DNA of 61,693 nucleotides, filler included. It is 5 parts of 5 records of this genome, joined end to end, with 100 filler letters (N's around TTAATTAATTAA, not from the genome) between each part and the next. Parts side by side here need not be neighbours in the genome. Positions count along the whole stretch, not along the records: positions 23,626 to 32,089 come from SRR31147125_9280; 4 more parts are not named here. One strand, 5' to 3'. Position 1 is the first letter of the stretch, and every line of letters begins with the position of its first letter. Below, piece after piece: positions 20,984-33,193 of this stretch. The notes below the pieces were generated by a model, which worked only from the letters and a program-made list of their open reading frames with translations, made no database searches and was not told the origin of the DNA. Position numbers and translations under genes: made by a program.

Positions 20984-23525
20984 TTAAAACTCAAATGTCA
21001 AATCAATCACAATAGGCTCGTCGTCGTTGCCAAAAATCATCTCCTCGTTACTGGTTGGGCCTTGTTCTCCAATATCTTTAAACTTGGTGCCAATTGGAGG
21101 AATGTTTTTTACAAACGAGATGTCGCCTTCGGGCCACTTTTTAACTGCTGAGCCCTTTAGTGCATCTGCCGGTTCGTCGGGAGTAAGCATGCGCAAAAAG
21201 GTGTGTGGAGTGTGACAATACACATTAAAACCATTGCCATTATTACCACGAATCTGCGCCCAATAAATGCTCGAAAAGTAGCCTTTAAACTCCGGGTATA
21301 CATATCCCGATTCTCCGGTAATGGTATTGTTGTAATCGTTTTTCCAAACTTTCAGTTTCGTACCTTTCATGCGGTTTCGCCATACGCGGTACGGGCCATC
21401 GCCTAACCATTTCATTCCGACCACTTCGCTCTCGGGAAATAAGAATGTAATTCCATAGAAATCCTTGATTTTACGTGTTCCTTTTATGCTGGTTTGCAAA
21501 TCAACCAAGCCGTTTGAATGAACTGTCCATTTTATGTAATCCTGTGTCATTTCTTCGTTGTCCTCCCAGTCCCAATATTTTTTCCTTGGCTCGTAAAGTG
21601 CAACTATTTCTACCTTATTTTCTGAAGTAGAAACAAATACAGTATCTAACTTCGATTTACTTCCCAAAAGGATCGGCCCTTTTGCCAATGGAATAGTAAT
21701 ACCTTCTTTTACAACCTTTTCAATTAAACCTGTTTTTGCTGAAAAAGTGAAATCCAAATTATGAGTAGAAACTTCAATTTTGGAAGCGTTGCTATTAACA
21801 TCAAGCTTTCCTTTTGCTGAATATTCAAGTTTGTTTTCATTAAAATTATCAGGAAGTTTAACAGGGTACGACCATGTGAAGATTTCCATTCCGTGTTTAT
21901 TCCATGCAGTTAAATAAAGGGCATCGGCATTTTTCCAGTTTTGTGGTAAATCTACTTTAAAAGAACCACGTTGACCTGGCTCAATTGCAGGCAGTGAAAC
22001 CGTACTTTCGTTGAGTATTTTTTCGGTGGTTGAGCCGGAGGGGCCATCGAATTGTACCCACTTTGCTTTCATTGTACAGGCATCCATGTTGGTGAAATGA
22101 TAGCGGTTTTCTACTTTAAAAACTCCATTGAAGCCATCGCGAATGTATCTGTCGTAAATAAAAACAGGCGACCACACTTCTTTTATGGTAAAGTAACTTC
22201 CTTCTTTTTCTCCATAAGGACCAACAATGCCATCGGGTGCATGATTCCCATCGGTATCTAAAATTCCTCCTTTGTCAGTCCTCACCACAGCTTCATCGGC
22301 AAAATCCCATAAAAAGCCACCCGCCGACAAGGGCATATTCCACATTACTTTCCAGTATTCATCCAGGCTGGCTCCGTGTCCGCCATCGTAAAGTCCGTGC
22401 ATAAATTCGGTGGGGAAGGAGATTTTATCTTTTACATAGCCATCGTAAGCCAATCCATGATACGGCAAATAGTGGAAGGTATTTGTTTTTCCATAAATGC
22501 CCCAGGGGTGAATCACCTCACGTTTTTGTATGTCCCATTTGGTATATTCATCGTCGAGCTCGTTGTTCCAACCCGTTTCGTTTCCGTTATCCCAAATTAC
22601 AATACCTGGGTGATTAACATCGCGAACCACTGCTTCCTTAACAATCTTTTTTCCAACCTCGGTGTCCAGGTAAGGTACGTGCCAGGTACAAACCTCGTCG
22701 AGCACAAACATTCCCAACGAATCGCAAACATCCAAAAAATGAACATCGGGAGGATAGTGCGACATGCGCACCGCGTTCATGTTCATGTCTTTCATTAGTT
22801 GTACATGCTCAATGCTCAGTGCTTTTGAGGTTGTGCGCCCTGAATTCGGGTAAAAACTGTGGCGATTAACTCCCTTAAATTTAATTTGCTGACCGTTTAC
22901 ATAAATCCCATCGCTTTCTCGTACTTCCACGGTTCTAAAACCAATACGCTGCTTCGCGGTGTGTAAGATTTCTCCTTTTTTGTCTAAAAGGCTAATTTGA
23001 AGTTCGTAAAGGTTTGGGCTTTCAGGATTCCATGTTTTTATGTTTGAAGCGGAAGTGGAAACAGACCATTTCCCATCTTCCTTTTTTAGTTTGTCAATGT
23101 TTAAGTCTTGAATTTTATTTCCAGAAACATCTGCCAGAACAAGTTTAGCATCTTCGGCTTTACCCGATGTGGTAAAAATGTCAGCCTTTATTGCTCCATT
23201 GGCTTGCGCATCAATTGCTACGCGATTAATATTTTCTACGGGAAGAATTTCGAGATAAACAGGACGAAAAATTCCTCCAAAAATCCAGAAGTCGGAATTT
23301 CGTTCGGCAGCGTTTATCGATGCATTGGCCGACATTTTATTCACTTTAACTTCCAACAGGTTTTCTTTGCCATATTTCAGCAATTTCGAAATGGAATATT
23401 TAAACTCGTAAAAAGCGCCCTGATGAATTTCTCCGGCCAGTTTACCGTTTATTTTTACCTCGCAATCGGTCATTACTCCTTCGAAAACAATTTTCACCTC
23501 CTTATTTTTCCAGTCGGCAGATACC
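20984..23525 (-). CDS. GH2 beta-galactosidase-like hydrolase (5' part lost at the contig end)
   Basis: GGIFRPV, KGVNRH, NAVRMSHYP, WDNGNE (acid/base), TEFMH (nucleophile), GGFLWDF. Confidence 0.92.
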
Positions 23526-23625
23526 NNNNNNNNNNNNNNNNNNNNNNNNNNNNNNNNNNNNNNNNNNNNTTAATTAATTAANNNNNNNNNNNNNNNNNNN
23601 NNNNNNNNNNNNNNNNNNNNNNNNN
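23526..23625. other. Artificial contig spacer
   Basis: N-run with TTAATTAATTAA. Confidence 0.99.
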
Positions 23626-24815
23626 ATCCGGAAAACCCCGATTGGGAAAATTATACCCCATCACATACAGGTTATATCGAGGATTGGGAAGCGCACCAGG
23701 AGGCCATTGAACAAGAAGTGGATACGATTTTTGACAGATTTAAAGACGAGTCGACAAAACTGATACTGCAACAAAACCACGATAAACTGCTTGCCCTGGC
23801 AACCGGAGTTTTCTTTGCCTGCGAAGATGCAGAAATTGACGACCCTTATGGCGATTATGAAGATATGAATGAAACGCTTTTGGAAACATTCCACGCCGCC
23901 CTTGCAGATGTAAACGAAAAAATAGAACAGTCGGTAATCCCGGGAAACATTAATGCCGCCATCGAATTATTTTTATCGTTTTGCAACCAAAGGCATCCTG
24001 CAGAGCCTAACTTCTTGCTACAACTTGAACCACTGCTAATTACTTTATCTGAAAAATCGACACAACCGGCTCAATTGCTTGAAACTATCGATGCCTCAAA
24101 AGTTAACAGGGCTCATGTACCACAGTTGGTTCTCTTACTGAATAAAAACAGTGGAAACCGTACAGAATGGCTCAAAAGTGCAGAAAACTACTATAAAACC
24201 AACATTAAAATTGCCAAACAACTAATTGACTACTATTTTGAAAATGACCAGGATAAATACCTGCAACGCGCCCACGAACTTTTTGAAACTGACAATACAT
24301 TTTGGGCCGGGTATCTGCAAAATTCAATCAGTTACGAACTCGATAAGCAACTTTACATCGATGTATTTTACGAACTCTGCACATACCAACACGATATCAG
24401 CTATTATCAAAAAATCAATAGCCTCCTACCCCCTGCTCAAAAAGAGAAGCTACTGGCAGAAATGAGCTGGAATGCACGTTTTACGGTTGAAATACTTACT
24501 ACTGAAAAACGGTACGGAGAAATAAAAGAGGTGGTAAACAAAAATATGAATTCGTGGGATTTTGTGCACCTTCTATCGCCCATCATCGGAATTTACCCCG
24601 AATTCTGTTTTAACGCAATAAAGCAGCAGGTAACCAACACCTTAAAAACAGAACGCGGACGAAGTGTTTACGAGCGAATTGTGGAGAAAATGCAGTTGGC
24701 AAAAAACATCCCCGGATTCGCCAGCCAAACCAACGAACTAATAATGCAGCTATATAACCACAAACCCAACCTGCCGGCGCTAAAAGATGAATTTAAAATT
24801 GGAGGCTTGGTATGA
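23626..24815 (+). CDS. Helical hypothetical protein (C-terminal part; resembles SWIM-finger-associated proteins)
   Basis: Long ORF that probably starts beyond the contig edge; ends R..Y......HKPNLPALKDEF. Confidence 0.55.
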
Positions 24816-24906
24816 GAAATGAAAAACGTACGTGTATTAGAATGTATAACTTGAAAGCCGACAGAGCCTGCTGGAACAGGAAATAAAAATTGATAAAACA
24901 ATATAT

Positions 24907-25040
24907 ATGAACAAAACAGACATTTCAATTTTAAAAGAACCTTTAAAGGTTACGGGGAAAGTGGTATTGGAAATTGAACCGTTGGCGCCTTTGTCAATGG
25001 TGAGTGATTTACCTGCTCTTTTTATAAATCATTAAAAAAT
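24907..25040 (+). pseudogene. cas5: Truncated, diverged cas5 5' fragment
   Basis: MNKTDISILKEPLKVTGKVVLEIEPLAPLSMVSDLP, then after a 1-nt shift SFYKSLK. It aligns with the intact Cas5 N-terminus MEKIDISILEKIPELTKRITIQIEPMAPLSMVSNLPGSFYKSLK. Confidence 0.85.
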
Positions 25041-25057
25041 TACATATAACTTATTTC

Positions 25058-25076
25058 AGTCAAATATAATTTGACT
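25058..25076. promoter_or_regulatory. Palindromic operator candidate upstream of the HTH gene
   Basis: AGTCAAAT-ATA-ATTTGACT, perfect 8-bp arms. Confidence 0.5.
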
Positions 25077-25114
25077 TTACGAACAGATTACTTTTTTATG
25101 TAGTCTAAAAATAA

Positions 25115-25122
25115 TAATTTTG
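25115..25122 (+). promoter_or_regulatory. Bacteroidota -7 promoter box for the HTH gene/cas operon
   Basis: TAATTTTG matches TAnnTTTG and ends 24 nt before ATG 25147. Confidence 0.6.
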
Positions 25123-25125
25123 TAT

Positions 25126-25150
25126 ATGTTATAAATAATAAGCTACATGG
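25126..25150 (-). promoter_or_regulatory. Predicted self-target (protospacer 25147-25126 plus 5' CCA PAM at 25150-25148)
   Basis: Minus strand reads CCA-TGTAGCTTATTATTTATAACAT, against spacer TGTAGATTATTTTTTAATAACAT. Confidence 0.7.
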
Positions 25151-25338
25151 CATGTAAATTGAAAACAATAGAAAAATATTACGAAATTCTTATAATATTA
25201 CGTTCTAAAAAGGTATCTGTTCGTGAGTTGATGAAAAAGATGTCAATGTCAAAAGAAGGGGTTTATACTTACCTGAGAACTATGCAGAAGTATGAACCTG
25301 GCCTACGAAATGAGAATAATAAATATTTTTTGCAATAA
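25147..25338 (+). CDS. Small basic winged-HTH protein (63 aa) at the head of the cas locus
   Basis: EILIILRSKKVSVRELMKKMSMSKEGVYTYLRTM fits an HTH_11-like pattern; preceded by a -7 box. Confidence 0.7.
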   Translation: MACKLKTIEKYYEILIILRSKKVSVRELMKKMSMSKEGVYTYLRTMQKYEPGLRNENNKYFLQ

Positions 25339-25414
25339 AAAAAGAGTCAATGTTATTAAAAAATAATCTACAATTTCAATTCCGAAAGGTGCGATTGAAT
25401 ATAACATTGACTCT
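25337..25414 (-). ncRNA. Predicted ~78-nt crRNA-like regulatory RNA (leader-repeat-spacer-U tract)
   Basis: Minus-strand TATCTTCG -7-like box at 25426-25419; 14-bp perfect inverted repeat (25401-25414 / 25343-25356); one repeat; ends in a U7 run. Confidence 0.65.
25373..25401 (-). CRISPR. Solitary CRISPR repeat (no array)
   Basis: Minus strand TATTCAATCGCACCTTTCGGAATTGAAAT, 29-30 nt, ending in the type I 8-nt handle ATTGAAAT; 80 nt upstream of cas6. I found no second copy. Confidence 0.8.
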
Positions 25415-25481
25415 ACCGCGAAGATAAGAATAAATAAACTTGAGAAAGAAATTATACAATTCACTAAAATAAATTTGGCTA

Positions 25482-26147
25482 ATGAGAATACATTTAAAAA
25501 TCGATTCTGATGGCACAGTTGTTCCATTTAACCACCAGAGGAAATTAACAGGAACCATTCACAAATGGATTGGATTAGAAAACATTGAACATGGAGAGAT
25601 TTCACTCTATTCATTTTCGATGTTAACAGGTGGAAAAAAGGATACATATGGAAAAGGGTTAAAATTTAACAATGGCTCATCTTTTTTTATTAGCGCCCAC
25701 AATCCAGCTCTAATTAAAACGATAATTGCGTCAGTACAATCAGATCAGGAAATGTTTGATGGCTTACGAGTAGTGGAAATTATAATACAAGAAGATCCAG
25801 ATCTGAGCCAAACAGATCGTTTTTTGGTTGCAAGTCCCATTTTTATAAAGCGCAAAGAAGGGGAAAGGGTTAAACATTATGCCTTTAACGATAATGGTGT
25901 TGCCGACTATTTAAAAGAAACACTTCTAACAAAAATGGAAAAAGTGGGATTACAAGACGATTCACTAACCATTGAATTCGATAAGGCATACCATAATGCA
26001 AAATGTAAAGTTATGCATTACAACGGTGTGAAAAACAAAGCCAATATATGCCCTGTGATTATCAAAGGAAAACCAGAAACAAAAGTGTTTGCCTGGAACG
26101 TAGGAATTGGTAACAGTACAGGAATTGGATTAGGTGCAATAAAATAA
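25482..26147 (+). CDS. cas6: CRISPR endoribonuclease Cas6
   Basis: H...SLYSFS, SPIFIK, C-terminal G-rich loop GIGNSTGIGLG. Confidence 0.93.
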   Translation: MRIHLKIDSDGTVVPFNHQRKLTGTIHKWIGLENIEHGEISLYSFSMLTGGKKDTYGKGLKFNNGSSFFISAHNPALIKTIIASVQSDQEMFDGLRVVEIIIQEDPDLSQTDRFLVASPIFIKRKEGERVKHYAFNDNGVADYLKETLLTKMEKVGLQDDSLTIEFDKAYHNAKCKVMHYNGVKNKANICPVIIKGKPETKVFAWNVGIGNSTGIGLGAIK

Positions 26148-26153
26148 ATAGTT

Positions 26154-26867
26154 ATGGAGAAAATAGATATCTCAATTCTTGAAAAAATACCTGAATTAAC
26201 AAAAAGGATAACAATTCAGATTGAGCCAATGGCGCCATTGTCGATGGTAAGTAATTTGCCTGGTTCATTTTATAAATCGTTGAAAAGCCCAAGTAAAAAG
26301 ATGTTATGTGGTTTATTTGAAAATATGTTGGGATGGCATTTTAGTTTTAATCATAGAACAGCAATCCAGAAAGAGATAATAAAGGCTCGACGTAAGCAAA
26401 AAGTAGAGTTTTCCAAACCACAAAAAGGCTCAACATATATCCCCCTTTTGATGGAGTATTTCGAAATTGATTTGGTAACAGTTCCAGAATACTTTATGTA
26501 TAATGATTTGTGGAGTAAAGCATATCGAAGAGCTGATGCAGATGTACATCCTAAAGGGACTCAAAATATTCACTATGATTTGATTTCGATTAAAAGAAAT
26601 AAACCACGAAATCCCCAAAAGCCCAAGCAAATTGCAAGTGCAGAATTATTAAAAATGTTTCTTGACGACCAAGGTAAGTTTCCTCTTTATTACTCTACTC
26701 CAACAATGCGAGAATACATAAAACATAATAAGCCAATTGAAATAGTATTAAAAATTGACAATAGCTTACTTTGTATGATTACCAAATACCTACAAACTCA
26801 AAATACAAGCTATTTGGGAAATAGTGAAGGATGGATAGACATTAAAATAAAAAGCAATGGAAATTAG
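26154..26867 (+). CDS. cas5: Cas5, PGING subtype (Cas5p)
   Basis: IEPMAPLSMVS..PGSFYKS...P...LCGLFENMLGWH; YYSTPT.RE; YLGNSEGW. Confidence 0.85.
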   Translation: MEKIDISILEKIPELTKRITIQIEPMAPLSMVSNLPGSFYKSLKSPSKKMLCGLFENMLGWHFSFNHRTAIQKEIIKARRKQKVEFSKPQKGSTYIPLLMEYFEIDLVTVPEYFMYNDLWSKAYRRADADVHPKGTQNIHYDLISIKRNKPRNPQKPKQIASAELLKMFLDDQGKFPLYYSTPTMREYIKHNKPIEIVLKIDNSLLCMITKYLQTQNTSYLGNSEGWIDIKIKSNGN

Positions 26868-28389
26868 ACTACACCCATATATTTGTTTTGGCCAAGCATT
26901 AGTAATAGTTGAGAATGGTGGTGATAAAAAGATGGAGATTACAACCAAAAATATTGCTGATGAGATTGTAATTGGACTTGCCTCTTTTAGGGTTCAACCA
27001 TGTGAATTATTTGAAGGCAAAGAAAAAATAAAATATCGATTTGGTCGAATTGAGAAAGGAAAAACAGAGGTTGGAATTTTCTTAGCCCCTAATATTATTT
27101 CAACTGATATGCTTGCAAAAAACACTTGGAAAGGAGCTTTACAGTTATATGAAAAATGTCAAGATAATCCACCCGAGAAAACAGAAAATGCAACAATGGC
27201 CTTGTCTCCCCTTTCGGGAGAATATTTATCATTTTCAACAAAGGGAGGAATTGGAAGGGGAAAACCCAAAAGCACAATTCTAGAAATGGCTCTCAGTATG
27301 GTCACCACTTTAACACCAAATAAACCATGCCTTCAAGATCGTGGAAATAACACATGCATAATACCGGATCTACCTCTTGATAAAATGATGGATTTCATTC
27401 GATTATTTAAAGATATGCTTCGTCATCAAACAGCTAATGATATTTATTATGGAAGAGTAAAAAAAGAGGAAAAAGGAAAAGGAGCAAATAAAAAAATAGA
27501 ATACAAACCTGTCAGACCGTTATTGTTTCAAGGGAATTTCCCAAATCCACCCAAAAGTACTACACTTGGAGCTGTGGCTTTGTTGGCAACAATTGGGGAA
27601 TTTTGTAAAAAAGAGGAATATTCACGACGAGCACAGGCAGTTATTGAAAGTCTAAAAGGAACAACCATTTACATGGTAAAGTATGGAGATGCAAAAACAT
27701 TTACGTTTAATCATTTTGTTATTGACCTTGCAAAAAATGGTAATCTACGGCGAGTAATCGACAGCCTATATTATTCTAAATTATACAACCAATCGCATCG
27801 CGATTATAAAAATACAGAATATCAGAAATTCGACCTATTCACCAGTCGCTTTCTTCAGCTATTTAATCGTGCTGCATTTAAAGATTTTCTTGCCTTCAGG
27901 GCAGAATATCCACAAGAAGTAAAATTATTATTTATAACATATTTCGAAAAAATGGAGAAAATAGATCCAAACATCGTAACCTCTGCCAGACATTTAGGTA
28001 GATGGCTTAACTTAGTTGCTTACCATACTGCAAAAAGGGAAATAAAAGATGGTACTCAAAATTATTGGGACAAACTAAGAGAACAAAAAGCAAAAGTTCT
28101 TGTAGAGCTGGAAAGTTCAAGTTTTTCAGCAAAATCGGGTGATGCAATGATCGCCCAAGTTGTTACCAGAGCAGGAAGACTTTCAGGAATGGATGCACCA
28201 AGTGAAGCAACTTTGTTTATGGAAAAAACTTCAAGTGGTGAACTCCCCCTTGACCAAGCAAGAAATTTAGTAATCGCATTTTCAAGACTGAAAAATGTGA
28301 AAGAAGAAAAAGTAGATGAAAGGACAACAGAAAGCTCAGTCGAAGAAAAAGCTCAGGAAATGGAAACCAATAATTATCAAGATTCATAA
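26857..28389 (+). CDS. cas8: Cas8 large subunit, PGING subtype (Csp2-like)
   Basis: 510 aa between cas5 and cas7; TTLTP.KP, IPDL, RP....GNFPN.P, FL..F....FKDFLAFRAEYP. Confidence 0.75.
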   Translation: MEIRLHPYICFGQALVIVENGGDKKMEITTKNIADEIVIGLASFRVQPCELFEGKEKIKYRFGRIEKGKTEVGIFLAPNIISTDMLAKNTWKGALQLYEKCQDNPPEKTENATMALSPLSGEYLSFSTKGGIGRGKPKSTILEMALSMVTTLTPNKPCLQDRGNNTCIIPDLPLDKMMDFIRLFKDMLRHQTANDIYYGRVKKEEKGKGANKKIEYKPVRPLLFQGNFPNPPKSTTLGAVALLATIGEFCKKEEYSRRAQAVIESLKGTTIYMVKYGDAKTFTFNHFVIDLAKNGNLRRVIDSLYYSKLYNQSHRDYKNTEYQKFDLFTSRFLQLFNRAAFKDFLAFRAEYPQEVKLLFITYFEKMEKIDPNIVTSARHLGRWLNLVAYHTAKREIKDGTQNYWDKLREQKAKVLVELESSSFSAKSGDAMIAQVVTRAGRLSGMDAPSEATLFMEKTSSGELPLDQARNLVIAFSRLKNVKEEKVDERTTESSVEEKAQEMETNNYQDS

Positions 28390-28407
28390 ATATAAAAACA
28401 TACAACC

Positions 28408-29325
28408 ATGAATATTAAAGGAATATTAGTTACAGCATTAGCTCCGTTCGAAAATCATATTGCAAATGGAGGAGAAAAATTACTAGGAAATGCATCATCA
28501 ATCAAAAGAAGACCCGACGGAAAAGTTTATGTTTCTGGCCAGATGCAACGACACGTCCTGTTTTCAGCAATCGATCGTTTAAACGAAATCGATGAGGACA
28601 AAGGAAACACTTTCGTTTCGAATGGCGATGGCATTAGTCCTTTTATTGAAAAAGACCTTCGTGCCGACATGGGCGGTTTTATGCATCCTAGCAAAGGAGA
28701 TTATTCAGGAAGAAGAACAGCTCCACTTTCTGTTACTCCAGCAGTTGCAACCGGTTTGAGTCAAGTTGGAAGAGATTTGTTAGTTAGGATAAAACTTGAT
28801 ACTAACGAAGACTCGAAAGATCAAGCTTTAGCAACCAAAGAGTTCAGCGAAACAGACATCATGCACATGAACTTCTTTTTAGATGTAAGTGCATTAAGTA
28901 TCTCAAAAGCATTTGAATATGAAGATGGCTTCAATATTGGCACCAAGTATTTCAAACATGCCAATAATCCTGAACGCAAACGCAGAGCCAAGTTATTCCT
29001 AAACGGTACTCGATATATGAATGACTATGCAAGTCAAGCTCGAAATGCGGTTAGTGGCGAACCCCAAAAAGTGTTAATCGTTTTTGATGAAGTAATGAGC
29101 CGAAAAGCTAGCCGTTATTTTGTGGCTGAAGAACAGGAACAAAATAATATTTTGGCAGAATTAGATGCCAAAGGTGCAAAGTATTTTATTGGAGATGACC
29201 AAACAGATAAGAGTGTACAGAAAGCATATGATGAAGCTTTAGCCTTTTTGGAAGCAAATGAATTGTATGACCCATCAAATGGTGACGATATAAAATCTTT
29301 TGCCGAAGCATTTGGTAATGAATAA
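28408..29325 (+). CDS. cas7: Cas7 backbone subunit, PGING subtype (Csp1-like)
   Basis: ANGGEKLLGNASSIK, YVSGQMQRH, DLRADMGGFM, RRTAPLSVT. Confidence 0.85.
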   Translation: MNIKGILVTALAPFENHIANGGEKLLGNASSIKRRPDGKVYVSGQMQRHVLFSAIDRLNEIDEDKGNTFVSNGDGISPFIEKDLRADMGGFMHPSKGDYSGRRTAPLSVTPAVATGLSQVGRDLLVRIKLDTNEDSKDQALATKEFSETDIMHMNFFLDVSALSISKAFEYEDGFNIGTKYFKHANNPERKRRAKLFLNGTRYMNDYASQARNAVSGEPQKVLIVFDEVMSRKASRYFVAEEQEQNNILAELDAKGAKYFIGDDQTDKSVQKAYDEALAFLEANELYDPSNGDDIKSFAEAFGNE

Positions 29326-31589
29326 AATTCAGAATAAAATATTGGCCAAGCCTTCTGGTATTTCGTTGGAAAAACACCATTCCAATGTAATGTCAGAAGG
29401 TGCTTATATTGAAGATTCCTTTCCTGTTGAATTTGAAAAATACCATAACTTTGTTGGAAAATCGTTGGCTAATCGACTGCAAATAGTTTGTAAGCATCAC
29501 GATGATGGAAAAAAGTCAACATCAAATGGCAAGAAGCTTGTCAAAGGGATTATCAAGCATATTTAGAGTGGAAAGAAATTCATCAAGGGACTTTTGTAGA
29601 ATACTCTAAACAGCAAAAAGAAGAAGCTGGTAAGAATATTCGGGTAGCAGCAACAAGACACGAATTATATTCAATTAAACAATTCGATATAGATAAAGCT
29701 CCTTCATATATTCTTACCGCAATAGCTGCACATCATGGAAAATTATCAGTAAAAGATGCTGAACGCTGGATTAAAGAGGGAGCAAAAAATTATTGGGACT
29801 TCTTCAACCAGCTCGACTATGATGTCAAGGATAATTTTTCATTTAAAGATGCCTTGTTAAAACAATATGAGCAAGCTGGCCCGCGTGGACTATTGCAGCT
29901 TGCTGATCACAGGGCAAGTGCTAAAGAAGATGGACAATCAGTTCCAGAAATAAAATCTTTTCGCTACCAATTTCCTCATCCATCAAAACGAGGAGTTCAA
30001 AAGATAATTGAAGAAAATTGGAACAACGACCTTCTTTTGGTTCGAGCTCCAACAGGTGCAGGTAAAACAGATGCTTCATTGCTATGGGCATCGTTACAAA
30101 TTGAAAACAAAAAAGCAGAACGATTAATAATTGCAATGCCAACACGTTTTACATCCAATGCGTTGGAGATAAACGTTGCTGAAACATTATCTGAAACGGG
30201 ACTTTATCATTCAAGTGCCTGGTTTAACAAATTCCAAACAAAAGTAAAAAGCAAAGAAGTGGAACATGCAGTTGCAAAGAAAAACCATGAATTTGCCCGT
30301 CTTTTATATACTCCAATAACTGTTTGTACTATTGATCATTTATTGATGTCGCTAACACTGATGCGAGAAGATCATCACCAAATAACATTTAACCTTGCAA
30401 ATTCATGCTTAGTAATCGATGAAGCCGACTTCTACGATGAATTTACACAAGCAAATATACAAACACTTTTAGTTGCATTAAAAGAATGGAACGTTCCTGT
30501 ACTTTTAATGAGTGCGTCTTTACCAGAATCAGTTGTTCCTTCTTATCAAGCATTAGGATATAATGTAGATCAAATATTAGAAGAAAAGTCGGATAACGAT
30601 AGAATTCGATTTAATATTGAATCAATAAATGAATACGAAGACTTAGTAGAAATAGAACCGCTTTTAGAAAAATGTATCGAAAAAGGAGCTGCAATTATCT
30701 ATGCCAATACGGTTGATAAGGCCATGTCGCTCTATGATTATTTCTGCGATAGAGATGTAAAAGCAATTGTTTATCATAGCCGATTCACGGAACCCGATAA
30801 AAAAGCGAAAGAAGATGAACTGATTGATTGCCTAGGGAAAAAAGCGTGGGAAAATAAAACGGCAAATGGAATTGCAATACTTACTCAGATTGGGGAAATG
30901 AGTATTAACATTAGTGCAGATCTAATGGTTTCTGAGATTTGTCCAATTGACCGATTGACACAACGTGCAGGCAGGTTATGTCGTTTTGAAATCAATGGCG
31001 AACGAAATGTTGGTGAATTGCATGTTATCATTCCGAAAAAAATGGAACTCTTTATCCAGCACCATACGGAACTTTTGATTTACATGAAAAGGCATGGCAA
31101 CCAATTAAACCATTAACGGACACGATTGAAAGAATAGAATTGAAAGACTATAGTGCCAATATGTTGGTGACGTTATTGAATGAAATCTATTCGCATGAAT
31201 CGGAATTTTCAGCAGTAGCTAAACGGAATGCAAATCAGCTAAAAGAATTGTTCATCTCCAATTGGCTAATAAATCCACTTTATAAAGTATCGGAAGAAGA
31301 TAACGATGGAAATAATTGGAGAAGTAGAAATATTCCGCCTCAGGATACCGTTTTTGTATCGTTGCCTGATAATAGATACTTCAATAATTATTTTGACTTC
31401 CAAGAATGGAAGCTATCTAATTCACTTGAAGTCCCTGTTTATTTGATAGAAAAATACATAAAAAAACACATTCTCGATTTTGAATCAATCTTTTTAAAAG
31501 ATGAAGAAGAAAAAATAATGGTTATCCGAGAAGGGTATTACAATTTTGAAAAAGGAGTATTTTTACCCGATGAGAGCAACTTCTTATAA
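29318..31589 (+). CDS. cas3: Cas3 HD nuclease-helicase (read in three pieces; indels at A-runs 29509-29514 and 31036-31042)
   Basis: HD part: LAKPSG.SLEKH, HHDDGK, RHE, AHHGK, LADHRAS. Helicase part: APTGAGKT, DEAD, MSAS, HSRF, QRAGRLCR. Adding one A to each run restores a single ORF. Confidence 0.92.
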
Positions 31590-31631
31590 TCTTCGTTCGA
31601 TCGCTAATGCCAACTTGTAAAAATTAAATTC

Positions 31632-31660
31632 ATCTCAGGGTTCCAAACCCTGTCAGAGGT
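31632..31660. repeat. REP-like palindrome (degenerate copy)
   Basis: ATCTCAGGGTTCCAAACCCTGTCAGAGGT, related to 32057-32089. Confidence 0.65.
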
Positions 31661-31685
31661 AAAAAACATACAACACCAAAACAAC

Positions 31686-32038
31686 ATGCCAACATTTGAG
31701 CACGACATATTTTACGACATCCACAAAATACCAATGAAGAAAAAGTGGAGCTCTTACGAGAAGCTAAAAACTTATCGTACCAGTTTTATATCGATAAACT
31801 TAATGCGAGTGAAAGTTTTGCACGTCAACCGGCAAATATCAGTTTTGATGATGTTTTGGAGCGTATAGATGAATCTACCCATTTTGTATTTATCCACCGC
31901 AAGGGGTATTCAAAACGGGAGCATCGCTTAGAAATTGGTTTCAGCACAATGGAAACCATCGACCACTTTTTGTTTATTTATGTTGATGAACTTAAAAAGC
32001 CATATTTTTTGGAGAAATATAATCTGGAAATAATGTAA
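31686..32038 (+). CDS. Hypothetical protein (~117 aa, split at an A-run near 31740)
   Basis: MPTFEHDIFYDIHKIPMKKK continues in another frame as VELLREAK...HFVFIHRKG...EIGFST..DHFLFIYV. Confidence 0.55.
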
Positions 32039-32056
32039 AACCTATTAAATAGCACC

Positions 32057-32089
32057 ACCTCTGACAGAGTTTGGAACTCTGTCAGAGGT
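32057..32089. repeat. REP-like palindrome at the contig end
   Basis: ACCTCTGACAGAGTT-TGG-AACTCTGTCAGAGGT, perfect 15-bp arms. Confidence 0.75.
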
Positions 32090-32189
32090 NNNNNNNNNNN
32101 NNNNNNNNNNNNNNNNNNNNNNNNNNNNNNNNNTTAATTAATTAANNNNNNNNNNNNNNNNNNNNNNNNNNNNNNNNNNNNNNNNNNNN
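32090..32189. other. Artificial contig spacer
   Basis: N-run with TTAATTAATTAA. Confidence 0.99.
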
Positions 32190-33193
32190 TGGCAATCTTA
32201 CGGACAAATAGTCCTGTTATGAAGGAGGTTTTTAATAAAGTAAGATCTGTTAGTCAGTCAAATAGCACTGTATTGTTAACCGGTGAAACAGGTACAGGAA
32301 AAGGTGTTATTGCTAATCTCATTCACCAACATAGTCAAAGGAGAGAGAATCAATTTATTAATATCCATTGTGGGGCGATTCCTGAAACACTTTTAGAGAG
32401 TGAACTGTTTGGCCATGAAAAAGGTGCCTTTACTGGTGCCGTACGGAGAAAACTGGGGAAATTTGAAATCGCTCAAGCAGGGACCATTTTTTTGGATGAG
32501 ATTGGTACAATAACTCATTCAATTCAGGTAAAATTATTGCAAGTACTACAAGAAAAGATATTTCAACGAGTTGGCGGAGAAGTGTCGATTGAAGCCGATG
32601 TCAGGATCATCGCCGCAACAAATGCCGATCTGAAGGATATGGTCAAAAATGGCACATTTCGTTCAGATCTTTATTATCGCTTAAATGTCTTTCCCATAGA
32701 AATACCGCCTTTGCGGGAACGAATTGCAGACATACCTTTACTTGTCGAGCAATTTATTAAAAAATTGAATCGATTTAACTCTAAAGATATTCGCGGAATA
32801 GACTCAGAAGTTTTACAGGCTTTACAAAATTATACCTGGCCAGGTAATATTCGCGAATTAGAAAATATCGTTGAAAGGGCCTATATTCTGGAAACATCAT
32901 CCATTCTGAGTCGAAATAGTTTTCCTCATGAATTATTTGATAATATGAATGAAGCGCATTTTCATCGTATTGATACCTCTTTGACTTTAGAGAAGGTACG
33001 TAATCAGGAGGTTGCACTCGTCGAGAAAAAATATTTACAAAAGCTACTCACGATTTATAAGGGCAAAATAAATGAAACGGCAAAAGCAGCTGGAGTTGGG
33101 GTTCGCCAGTTACACAAATTAATGAAAAAACATGGTATTCATAAGGAAGAATTCAAACAGTTTGGAAGTAAGAATGTAAAATCGGAACAATAA
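32190..33193 (+). CDS. Sigma54-dependent transcriptional activator (5' partial)
   Basis: [47 protein letters not shown]-terminal Fis-type HTH. Confidence 0.95.

Follow-up and report, generated by a model that had tools for sequence, protein, structure and literature searches.

A solitary CRISPR repeat ahead of a type I-PGING cas operon is likely to encode a crRNA-like RNA directed at the start of a small helix-turn-helix gene

A solitary CRISPR (clusters of regularly interspaced short palindromic repeats) repeat lies on the minus strand between a 63-residue helix-turn-helix (HTH) gene and cas6, at the head of a type I-PGING cas operon, in the 61,693-bp stretch of DNA analysed here, referred to throughout as the window. 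Together with the spacer-like sequence behind it and the promoter-like and terminator-like elements around it, this repeat is likely to form a small RNA gene of the CreR/CreA type, whose CRISPR RNA (crRNA)-like product would serve the adjacent I-PGING system. The assignment draws on the anatomy of the element, its repeat family, the recurrence and co-variation of guide and target in related loci, the protospacer adjacent motif (PAM) and the periodicity of the mismatches. The element, its target and the targeted gene are made up of the following features.

25115–25122, plus strand: candidate −7 box of the promoter of the HTH gene and possibly of the operon, TAATTTTG
25147–25132, minus strand: target (protospacer-like), covering the stretch of the HTH gene predicted to be transcribed first, through the A of its ATG
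25150–25148, minus strand: PAM, CCA, overlapping codons 1–2 of the HTH gene
25147–25338, plus strand: 63-residue HTH gene, 143 nt ahead of cas6, with a sub-threshold HTH_11 match
25425–25418, minus strand: near-consensus −7 box of the small RNA gene, TATCTTCG, 54 nt before the guide start
25414–25401, minus strand: 5′ arm of a 14-bp stem in the RNA leader, a perfect inverted repeat with 25343–25356
25401–25373, minus strand: solitary CRISPR repeat (psi-R) of 29 nt, TATTCAATCGCACCTTTCGGAATTGAAAT
25380–25373, minus strand: predicted 5′ handle, the last 8 nt of the repeat, ATTGAAAT, with the predicted Cas6 cut 5′ of base 25380
25372–25357, minus strand: guide, made up of positions 1–16 of psi-S (the spacer-like sequence), with 14 of its 16 bases matching 25147–25132 (minus strand)
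25356–25337, minus strand: 3′ stem arm (25343–25356) and T run (25337–25343), a terminator-like end of the RNA

The repeat is single, as an earlier note on this DNA had read it: one copy is present in the window even with three mismatches allowed. The sequence that follows it, TGTAGATTATTTTTTA, differs from the minus strand at 25147–25132 only at positions 6 and 12 and lies beside a CCA flank there, which is also how the earlier note had described the pairing; the seed match is 10/10. TAnnTTTG is the −7 promoter consensus of Bacteroidota, and the predicted position of the target by such a box, extending to the A of the HTH start codon (base 25147), was likewise borne out. The same note had extended the pairing to a TAACAT hexanucleotide past a 1-nt bulge; the sequence match holds, but the hexanucleotide sits within the stem and outside the conserved pairing of related elements, which ends at position 17.

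A search of both strands of the window returned 25147–25132 (minus strand) as the only site with two or fewer mismatches to the guide 16-mer, and as the only CC-flanked site with the full 10/10 seed. Chance, which the earlier note had proposed to gauge with composition-matched shuffles, was estimated from 20,000 replicas of the upstream 411 nt drawn from a first-order Markov model; 0.73% of these contained a site with at most two mismatches and 0.015% such a site with a CC flank. The match between guide and target is confirmed as real and not a product of chance. No second guide target was found between the RNA gene and cas6, the guide had no match in viral contigs, and no Rfam family was detected in 23000–33000 at E values up to 1.

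The repeat was placed in its family with 80 loci encoding relatives of the window’s Cas6, to which 80 I-PGING metagenome loci found through Csp1 were added. Arrays in 26 of the 80 cas6 loci, most of which have the gene order cas6-cas5-cas3-cas8-cas7, share the consensus CTnnnAATCGnACCnnnnnGGAATTGAAAY, always on the cas strand. The repeat at 25401–25373 fits this consensus, scores 19 bits against an nhmmer profile of the 26 array repeats and carries a handle identical to that of the family; by its sequence it is a true member of the repeat family of type I-B/I-PGING arrays. Since 27 arrays in the 80 I-PGING loci carry the same repeat as the arrays of the cas6 set, one Cas6/repeat family evidently serves two effector types, I-B and I-PGING. 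The reverse complement of the type I-B repeat described for B. fragilis (PMC9367070) likewise belongs to this family.

The design recurs in related loci. Anchors of the form GAATTGAA[AG]N occur 45 times within 2.5 kb of cas6 (81 sources), and each was scored over 15 positions (1–17 without 6 and 12). For twelve of them, a same-strand site no more than 600 nt away matches at 14–15 of the 15 positions, flanked in every case by CCA or CCT; the remaining 33 score 12 or less. One further element (locus L139) was found among 288 non-array anchors in the 80 I-PGING metagenome loci, giving 13 elements in all, including that of the window, each consisting of a solitary repeat or a bare 8-nt handle beside cas6. 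With a background for match plus CC flank of 3.9e-4 per anchor, obtained from 277,120 arbitrary anchors in the same regions, about 0.02 other loci of this design would be expected, against the 12 found. A rescan by plain identity over 17 positions, made with no rule on the flank, gave at least 14 of 17 matches for 21 of 754 solitary anchors; the 13 with a CC flank are exactly the 13 elements, and the other eight have non-CC flanks and scattered mismatches, some lying in degenerate arrays.

Across the 13 pairs, the number of matches at successive guide positions is 13, 13, 13, 13, 13, 5, 13, 13, 11, 13, 13, 2, 9, 12, 13, 13, 12 and 5, after which it falls to background level. Mismatches thus occupy 19 of 26 places at positions 6 and 12, compared with 8 of 195 over the rest of positions 1–17, and positions 6 and 12 match at about the rate of unrelated AT-rich sequence. 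In the related solitary minus-strand repeats, the best local match lies on the same strand some 60–250 nt away, with mismatches at 6, 12 and 18. The sites are flanked by CCA (8) or CCT (5). Apart from L011 and L038, which are orthologous, the 13 guides are mutually unrelated in sequence. What is seen within each locus is therefore a maintained pairing and not common descent; an origin of the pair by duplication does not fit either, as positions 6 and 12 would then match as often as their neighbours. The earlier note had suggested looking in homologues for co-variation of guide and target, with drift limited to positions 6, 12 and 18 and a conserved CCN PAM; co-variation, drift mainly at positions 6 and 12 and a CCA/CCT flank are found in 12 other cas6-side loci.

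These results bear on two explanations that assign no role to Cascade (the CRISPR-associated complex for antiviral defence). The first takes the repeat as all that is left of an array that decayed or was rearranged, and its match to the HTH start as an AT-rich coincidence of no function. The locus is indeed rearranged, with a cas5p stub at 24909–25040 and no array or adaptation genes nearby, and the guide is T-rich and of low complexity; this origin is nevertheless very unlikely given the chance estimates above, the joint presence of PAM, seed and 6/12 pattern, the 12 other loci of the same design, and the promoter-like box and stem with seven T residues that frame the repeat. In the second explanation, which is more improbable still, both stretches are protein-binding sites unrelated to Cascade, either HTH operators or shared promoter elements. 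Imperfect inverted and direct repeats in the HTH promoter region and an ATGTTAT/ATAACAT motif near both sites would suit such operators, but these would leave unexplained why the mismatches fall exactly at 6 and 12 counted from a CRISPR handle, would have no need of a CCW flank on one side only, and would not account for related loci that keep the guide/target design without this HTH gene.

The PAM of the family was read from array spacers. A single spacer of L141, a gut I-PGING locus, found matches in 11 viral contigs, and a comparison of 1,303 spacers with those contigs yielded ten distinct L141 protospacers and one of L003 (four mismatches). The 5′ flanks of the 25 non-spurious protospacer variants are CCA (17), CCG (4), CCT (1) and CAA (3), so that CC occupies −3 and −2 in 22 of 25. 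The earlier note had named a non-CCN array PAM as counter-evidence; at family level, the spacers of L141 and L003 point to CCN. The three CAA variants belong to a single L141 protospacer, which has CCA in a fourth contig, and could represent a PAM escape. The ten distinct L141 spacers (L141:11828–13860) all hit one viral contig family (L161–L171). Elsewhere the spacer searches were negative: array spacers of L077 and L141 had no match in the phage collection, those of L153 and L146 had none in viral contigs, and the 1,303 spacers had no protospacer in the 160 loci and only an 18-nt partial match in the window, which is taken as chance. The literature agrees: CCN is tabulated for Porphyromonas ‘I-C’ (PMC8482600), and for B. 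fragilis type I-B, where the orientation is reversed, the PAM is reported to have G at positions 2 and 3 on the downstream side (PMC9367070).

The repeat and guide are enclosed by elements expected of a short transcription unit. The upstream box TATCTTCG differs from TAnnTTTG at one base and is placed much as L054 has its exact box (−53). On either side of the repeat and guide lie the arms of a perfect 14-bp inverted repeat (25343–25356/25401–25414), a feature absent from the earlier note, with seven T residues following on the minus strand; folded as RNA, this stem element reaches −19.8 kcal/mol (z = −3.6), a stability that 0 of 200 shuffles attained. The distance of about 37 nt between handle and T run is that of an ordinary spacer (34–37 nt in 56 related arrays). 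No second repeat-like sequence (psi-R2) follows the guide in the window, its place being taken by the stem and T run. The 14-bp arms were also considered as the ends of a repeated mobile element, which was rejected, as these are the only two such arms in the window.

The other elements are framed in a similar manner. An exact TAnnTTTG box lies upstream in 11 of the 12, at 43–54 nt from the guide where a full repeat is present and at 23–28 nt in the three elements that retain only the handle. TAnnTTTG boxes are not enriched in the window (62 found, about 80 expected), so a single box is weak evidence, and the argument lies in its recurrence at a fixed place in these 11 of 12 elements. The RNAs of the handle-only elements may begin at the 8-nt handle itself, leaving a 5′ cut by Cas6 unneeded.

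L011:9666–9700, minus strand: handle-only element
L038:9664–9700, minus strand: handle-only element
L139:3451–3480, minus strand: handle-only element

A strong hairpin lies downstream in all 12 (−19 to −31 kcal/mol in 11), mostly with T runs next to it. The 5′ part of a second repeat is kept after the guide in L071, L062, L011, L038, L079 and L139, and not in the others.

The targets are placed in several arrangements.

L047, L049 and L052: PAM end 7–11 nt upstream of the TAnnTTTG box of the next plus-strand gene, the site lying over its −33 region
L036, L054 and L058: PAM end 21–30 nt upstream of the TAnnTTTG box of the next plus-strand gene
L071 and the window: start of transcription covered by the site, which lies a little downstream of the box
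L139, the only other I-PGING locus with cas6 and an element: PAM one base from the ATG of cas6, the first gene

In 12 elements the protospacer strand is opposite to the regulated gene and the PAM is the end nearest to it; in the exception, L079, the RNA gene is directed towards cas6 and has the site at its own promoter. In the window, the RNA gene is antisense within the HTH–cas6 intergenic region, and an mRNA reading through this region would be fully complementary to it, which is the basis of a further explanation: that the solitary repeat acts as RNA only, either as a decoy titrating Cas6 or as a cis-antisense RNA to the HTH–cas6 read-through, with no targeting of DNA. This is barely conceivable, as it leaves unexplained a partial match to a PAM-flanked DNA site conserved in 13 loci, and the RNA gene is not antisense to the operon transcript in 12 of the 13.

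The targeted gene encodes a small protein with few relatives. Two, of 70–71% identity, were found among 5.8 billion proteins, and four hits among 1.84 billion representatives, two of which are small proteins of equal length; overall, the relatives are 48–73% identical. The conservation and equal length of these relatives argue that the 63-residue open reading frame (ORF) is a real gene. HTH_11, of which it has a sub-threshold match, is the N-terminal domain of WYL regulators. A structure model is all-helical, with a pLDDT (predicted local distance difference test) score of 75; a fold search gave no match at E values up to 0.001, the best weak rows being HTH domains. The gene is absent from the 160 related cas loci, and none of 278 pattern matches in metagenome contigs or 160 in viral contigs was confirmed as a relative. 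HTH-WYL-like regulators of about 300 residues, named by their N-terminal sequence pattern, lie directly upstream of cas6 in L001 (286–1182), L003 (1271–2188) and L011 (8250–9167), the position held by the 63-residue gene in the window. Its origin as a recently truncated WYL regulator was rejected: over about 40 residues its identity to these regulators is only 24%, and no remnant of WYL follows it.

The HTH promoter probably also feeds cas6-cas5p-csp2-csp1-cas3. No plus-strand terminator was found between the HTH gene and cas6 (the stem at 25343–25414 has a T run on the minus strand only), and of the two plus-strand TAnnTTTG boxes in 24816–25482, at 25115–25122 and 25470–25477, the latter ends 4 nt before the cas6 ATG, so that read-through from the HTH promoter into the operon is plausible.

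Three families of small ORFs (50–88 residues) were found in nine loci, only together with an element and directly behind its target. Neither Pfam nor PADLOC gave a match for them, and they are candidate genes under Cascade repression (CreT/CreP-like) in Bacteroidota type I-B loci.

L047:979–1197, L049:10865–11086, L052:10891–11109 and L036:10882–11097: first small-ORF family
L054:9727–9879 and L058:11382–11576: second small-ORF family
L011:9784–10050 (also in L038 and L034): third small-ORF family

The layout of these nine loci, that of a CreTA cassette, raises the prospect of the same RNA mechanism put to another use, as an addiction or anti-anti-CRISPR device resembling CreTA/CrePA, in which a harmful or growth-arresting HTH protein is kept silent by Cascade with the RNA, and the loss or inhibition of Cascade is punished. 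The HTH gene is a near-orphan, absent from related cas loci and cargo-like, and protein toxins under CreA control do exist, for example CreP (bioRxiv 10.1101/2024.01.05.574328). We regard such a device as unlikely here, as the family signals of the protein are weak HTH domains only, with no hint of toxicity, no relative was found in viral contigs, and the gene is convergent with the RNA gene, whereas described CreTA modules are divergent; its place ahead of cas6 suits a regulator or a first operon gene equally.

The cas genes beyond the element form a type I-PGING effector module.

25482–26147, plus strand: cas6, TIGR01877, 80.7 bits against a cut-off of 58.65
26154–26867, plus strand: cas5p; the set TIGR03488/TIGR03487/TIGR03489 covers cas5p-csp2-csp1, all far over their cut-offs
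26857–28389, plus strand: csp2/cas8c, type I-PGING Cascade gene by NCBIfam match
28408–29325, plus strand: csp1/cas7, type I-PGING Cascade gene by NCBIfam match
about 29300–31589, plus strand: cas3, in three frames in the window, with a Cas3 core of 317.7 bits

Cas5p (268.9 bits), Csp2 (Cas8c; 632.9) and Csp1 (Cas7; 545.2) exceed the NCBIfam cut-offs of 100, 461.75 and 340.65, respectively, and are accompanied by Cas3. The cas3 gene is collinear with the 761-residue Cas3 of the related locus L077 across residues 11–761, and its frame shifts fall at an A6 run (29509–29514) and an A7 run (31036–31042). A Logan contig of run X1 has one extra A at both runs and is otherwise identical across 24800–31700, although X1 may be the source sample, in which case the contig is not independent DNA. 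The gene is probably intact, the breaks representing homopolymer errors or recent slippage; its reading as a decayed pseudogene was rejected, with both frame shifts in A runs and one more A at each in the X1 contig.

A diverged second cas5p 5′ stub (24909–25040) lies directly upstream of the HTH promoter, with about 70% nucleotide identity to 26154–26285 and one 1-nt deletion. As 77 of the 80 I-PGING loci begin with cas5p, with no cas6 of the window’s family ahead of it, this stub suggests that HTH gene, RNA gene and cas6 were added as a block ahead of an older I-PGING operon whose first gene had been cas5p. A second contig of run X1, 95–99% similar to 24956–25366, contains the stub end, the HTH promoter, the HTH gene and the left stem arm; the sequence on both sides is unlike that of the window, and the right break falls inside the spacer-like sequence. 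The contig may come from a variant strain, or may represent another copy of the HTH cassette, one lacking the repeat. Elsewhere in the window, an ORF at 32219–33193 has, by eye, the look of a sigma-54-dependent activator, with an AAA+ core, a GAFTGA-type motif and a C-terminal HTH, and no receiver or sensor domain at its start.

From these comparisons we infer transcription, processing, binding, repression and operon structure as follows. Minus-strand transcription would start near 25412 from the weak TAnnTTTG-like box, pass through a single intact CRISPR repeat and some 30 nt of spacer-like sequence, and end at the stem followed by U7. Cas6 would cut 8 nt before the spacer-like part, leaving a 5′ end at 25380, and the product of about 45 nt would load into a Cascade of Cas5p, Csp2 and Csp1. 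Cascade flips out every sixth guide base, and short R-loops do not recruit Cas3. The complex would read the CCA PAM at 25150–25148 and pair guide positions 1–16 with the plus strand at 25132–25147, positions 6 and 12 being flipped out. Pairing would end after about 17 nt, and because the R-loop would then be incomplete and Cas3 not licensed, no cut would follow. The bound complex would lie over the start codon of the HTH gene and roughly the first 20 bases to be transcribed, blocking RNA polymerase. If the HTH promoter feeds the operon, the outcome would be a negative feedback of Cascade on itself, relieved when crRNAs or inhibitors take Cascade away.

Several observations sit well with this scheme. 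Pairing ends by position 17 of a spacer length of 34–37 nt, at a site between the −7 box and the HTH ATG, and the intact target persists next to an apparently intact cas3 gene, which is compatible with repression without cleavage. The proposal of the earlier note, that a guide processed by Cas6 and matching only in part brings Cascade to the HTH start with no cleavage, is supported by the repeat family, the 12 other loci, the drift mainly at positions 6 and 12 and the CCN flank. Its further suggestion, that the HTH gene and possibly the cas operon are repressed, fits the comparison as far as targeting of the HTH start is concerned, and control of the operon would depend on co-transcription of the HTH gene and cas6.

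The assignment to a crRNA-like RNA gene, likely as it is, has to be weighed against a number of points. The promoter box of the RNA carries C where the consensus has T, and the stem and T run were missed by a simple terminator scan, which admits loops of 3–8 nt only, the loop here being of 44 nt and structured. No RNA run containing 24800–26200 was found. The target of the window is the only one to lie downstream of its RNA gene (+225), past the convergent HTH gene; in the other 12 elements it lies 57–248 nt upstream, between divergent promoters. The 160 cas loci and the metagenome contigs searched contained no close relative with the HTH–repeat–cas6 layout, so that co-variation of the window’s own pair cannot be followed, and many of the related loci derive from metagenome bins. 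The detection criterion skipped positions 6, 12 and 18 and so favours a periodic pattern, a bias that the rescan by plain identity removes. Finally, the 61.7-kb window contains a single repeat copy and no CRISPR array (at least three regularly spaced repeats with unique spacers), nor does it hold cas1, cas2 or cas4 in the 25–30 kb on either side; in L077, cas4, cas1 and cas2 come after cas3.

The missing array would take on a different meaning if the genome had none of this repeat family elsewhere. The crRNA-like RNA would then be the sole guide of its Cascade, and the locus a self-contained repressor outside immunity, with an HTH protein that is a regulator or arrests growth, and with the small-ORF families as new Cascade-repressed genes. 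We put this forward as a speculative extension that is improbable on present evidence; if it were true, the HTH protein would either be a regulator with a regulon of its own or make the cell dependent on Cascade.

With the recurrence of this design, crRNA-like self-regulation would extend to systems of Bacteroidota in which types I-B and I-PGING draw on a single Cas6/repeat family. The 13 guide/target pairs amount to a natural experiment on the rules of Cascade, in which pairing is needed at positions 1–5, 7–11 and 13–17, positions 6 and 12 are free, and the flank is CCW; these rules offer guidance for designing CRISPR interference based on the endogenous Cascades of gut and environmental Bacteroidales. 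In the window, an HTH protein and not an effector gene would be directly under Cascade, which could tie CRISPR status to other genes, and the small ORFs of related loci are candidates for new Cascade-repressed toxins.

Natural guides with a partial match that turn a CRISPR nuclease into a transcriptional repressor are known from Cas9 systems, in the form of scaRNA (small CRISPR-Cas-associated RNA) and the long form of the trans-activating crRNA (tracrRNA). They differ from the element described here in belonging to type II, with a single-protein effector and a different RNA scaffold. Closer counterparts, crRNA-like regulatory RNAs, have been known since 2021–2023, and the window is a further example of this kind. 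The earlier note knew of no description of the layout for a Bacteroidota PGING system; the kind had already been described, as CreA/CreR RNAs and mini-arrays, and what stands of that claim is that the system and the details are unmentioned in the main texts searched. Neither Bacteroidota, Porphyromonas and PGING nor an HTH target is mentioned in the searched main texts on CreR/CreA RNAs, whose supplementary tables may hold them.

CreR RNAs are reported from types I-B, I-E and V-A, with creA-like elements predicted in I-C, I-D, I-F and I-U (Liu et al., bioRxiv 10.1101/2023.03.10.532045). As described there, CreR takes the form of a degenerate mini-CRISPR located between cas genes; its spacer-like part shares at least 10–15 PAM-proximal nucleotides with a PAM-flanked site in a cas promoter, and the effector binds this site uncut and represses its own genes, as is proposed for the window. 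In contrast to those elements, that of the window has one full repeat and no second, its RNA ending in a stem and T run; its target is the HTH start ahead of cas6 and not the cas8/casA promoter; and its RNA gene is convergent with the regulated gene, in a Bacteroidota-type I-PGING system. The terms ‘Bacteroid’ and ‘Porphyromonas’ are absent from the main text of that paper, although its supplementary figures may differ.

Repeat-like sequences are also reported to be enriched near cas6 of type I-B, in 27% of untranslated regions, with putative targets in the cas6 promoter that have a proper PAM and seed, and with cargo genes as further targets (Shmakov et al., bioRxiv 10.1101/2023.03.03.530964, PMC10120712). 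The window resembles these mini-arrays and standalone repeat units in its cas6-near repeat and its PAM- and seed-matched target. The typical unit described there has two repeat-like sequences, with examples from Clostridium perfringens and Fusobacterium, whereas the window has a single repeat. ‘Bacteroid’, ‘PGING’ and ‘HTH’ do not occur in the main text of the paper, the supplements of which may list such loci.

With CreTA/CrePA (10.1101/2024.01.05.574328) the window shares a crRNA-like RNA and an adjacent small gene, the promoter of which is silenced through Cascade in the one and would be in the other, and the position of the cassette among cas genes. The toxins described there are small RNAs or a KilAC-domain protein, whereas the HTH protein shows no sign of toxicity, and the modules are divergent, with two psi-repeats, compared with the convergent arrangement and one repeat of the window.

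The composition of the RNA gene is closest to that of a type V-A CreR, in which one repeat-like sequence and a spacer-like sequence are followed by a rho-independent terminator (bioRxiv 10.1101/2024.10.29.618823). Because a single-repeat CreR has been described for V-A, a second repeat is usual but not required. The V-A CreR lies upstream of the effector promoter and works with Cas12a, a class 2 effector, a different handle and a TTTA PAM, in contrast to the type I Cascade here, and unlike its terminator, the stem in the window pairs the 5′ leader of the RNA with the distal spacer-like part. The single repeat, this leader-to-guide terminator stem, the convergent layout and an orphan HTH gene as direct target are the unusual details that the window adds to the known systems.

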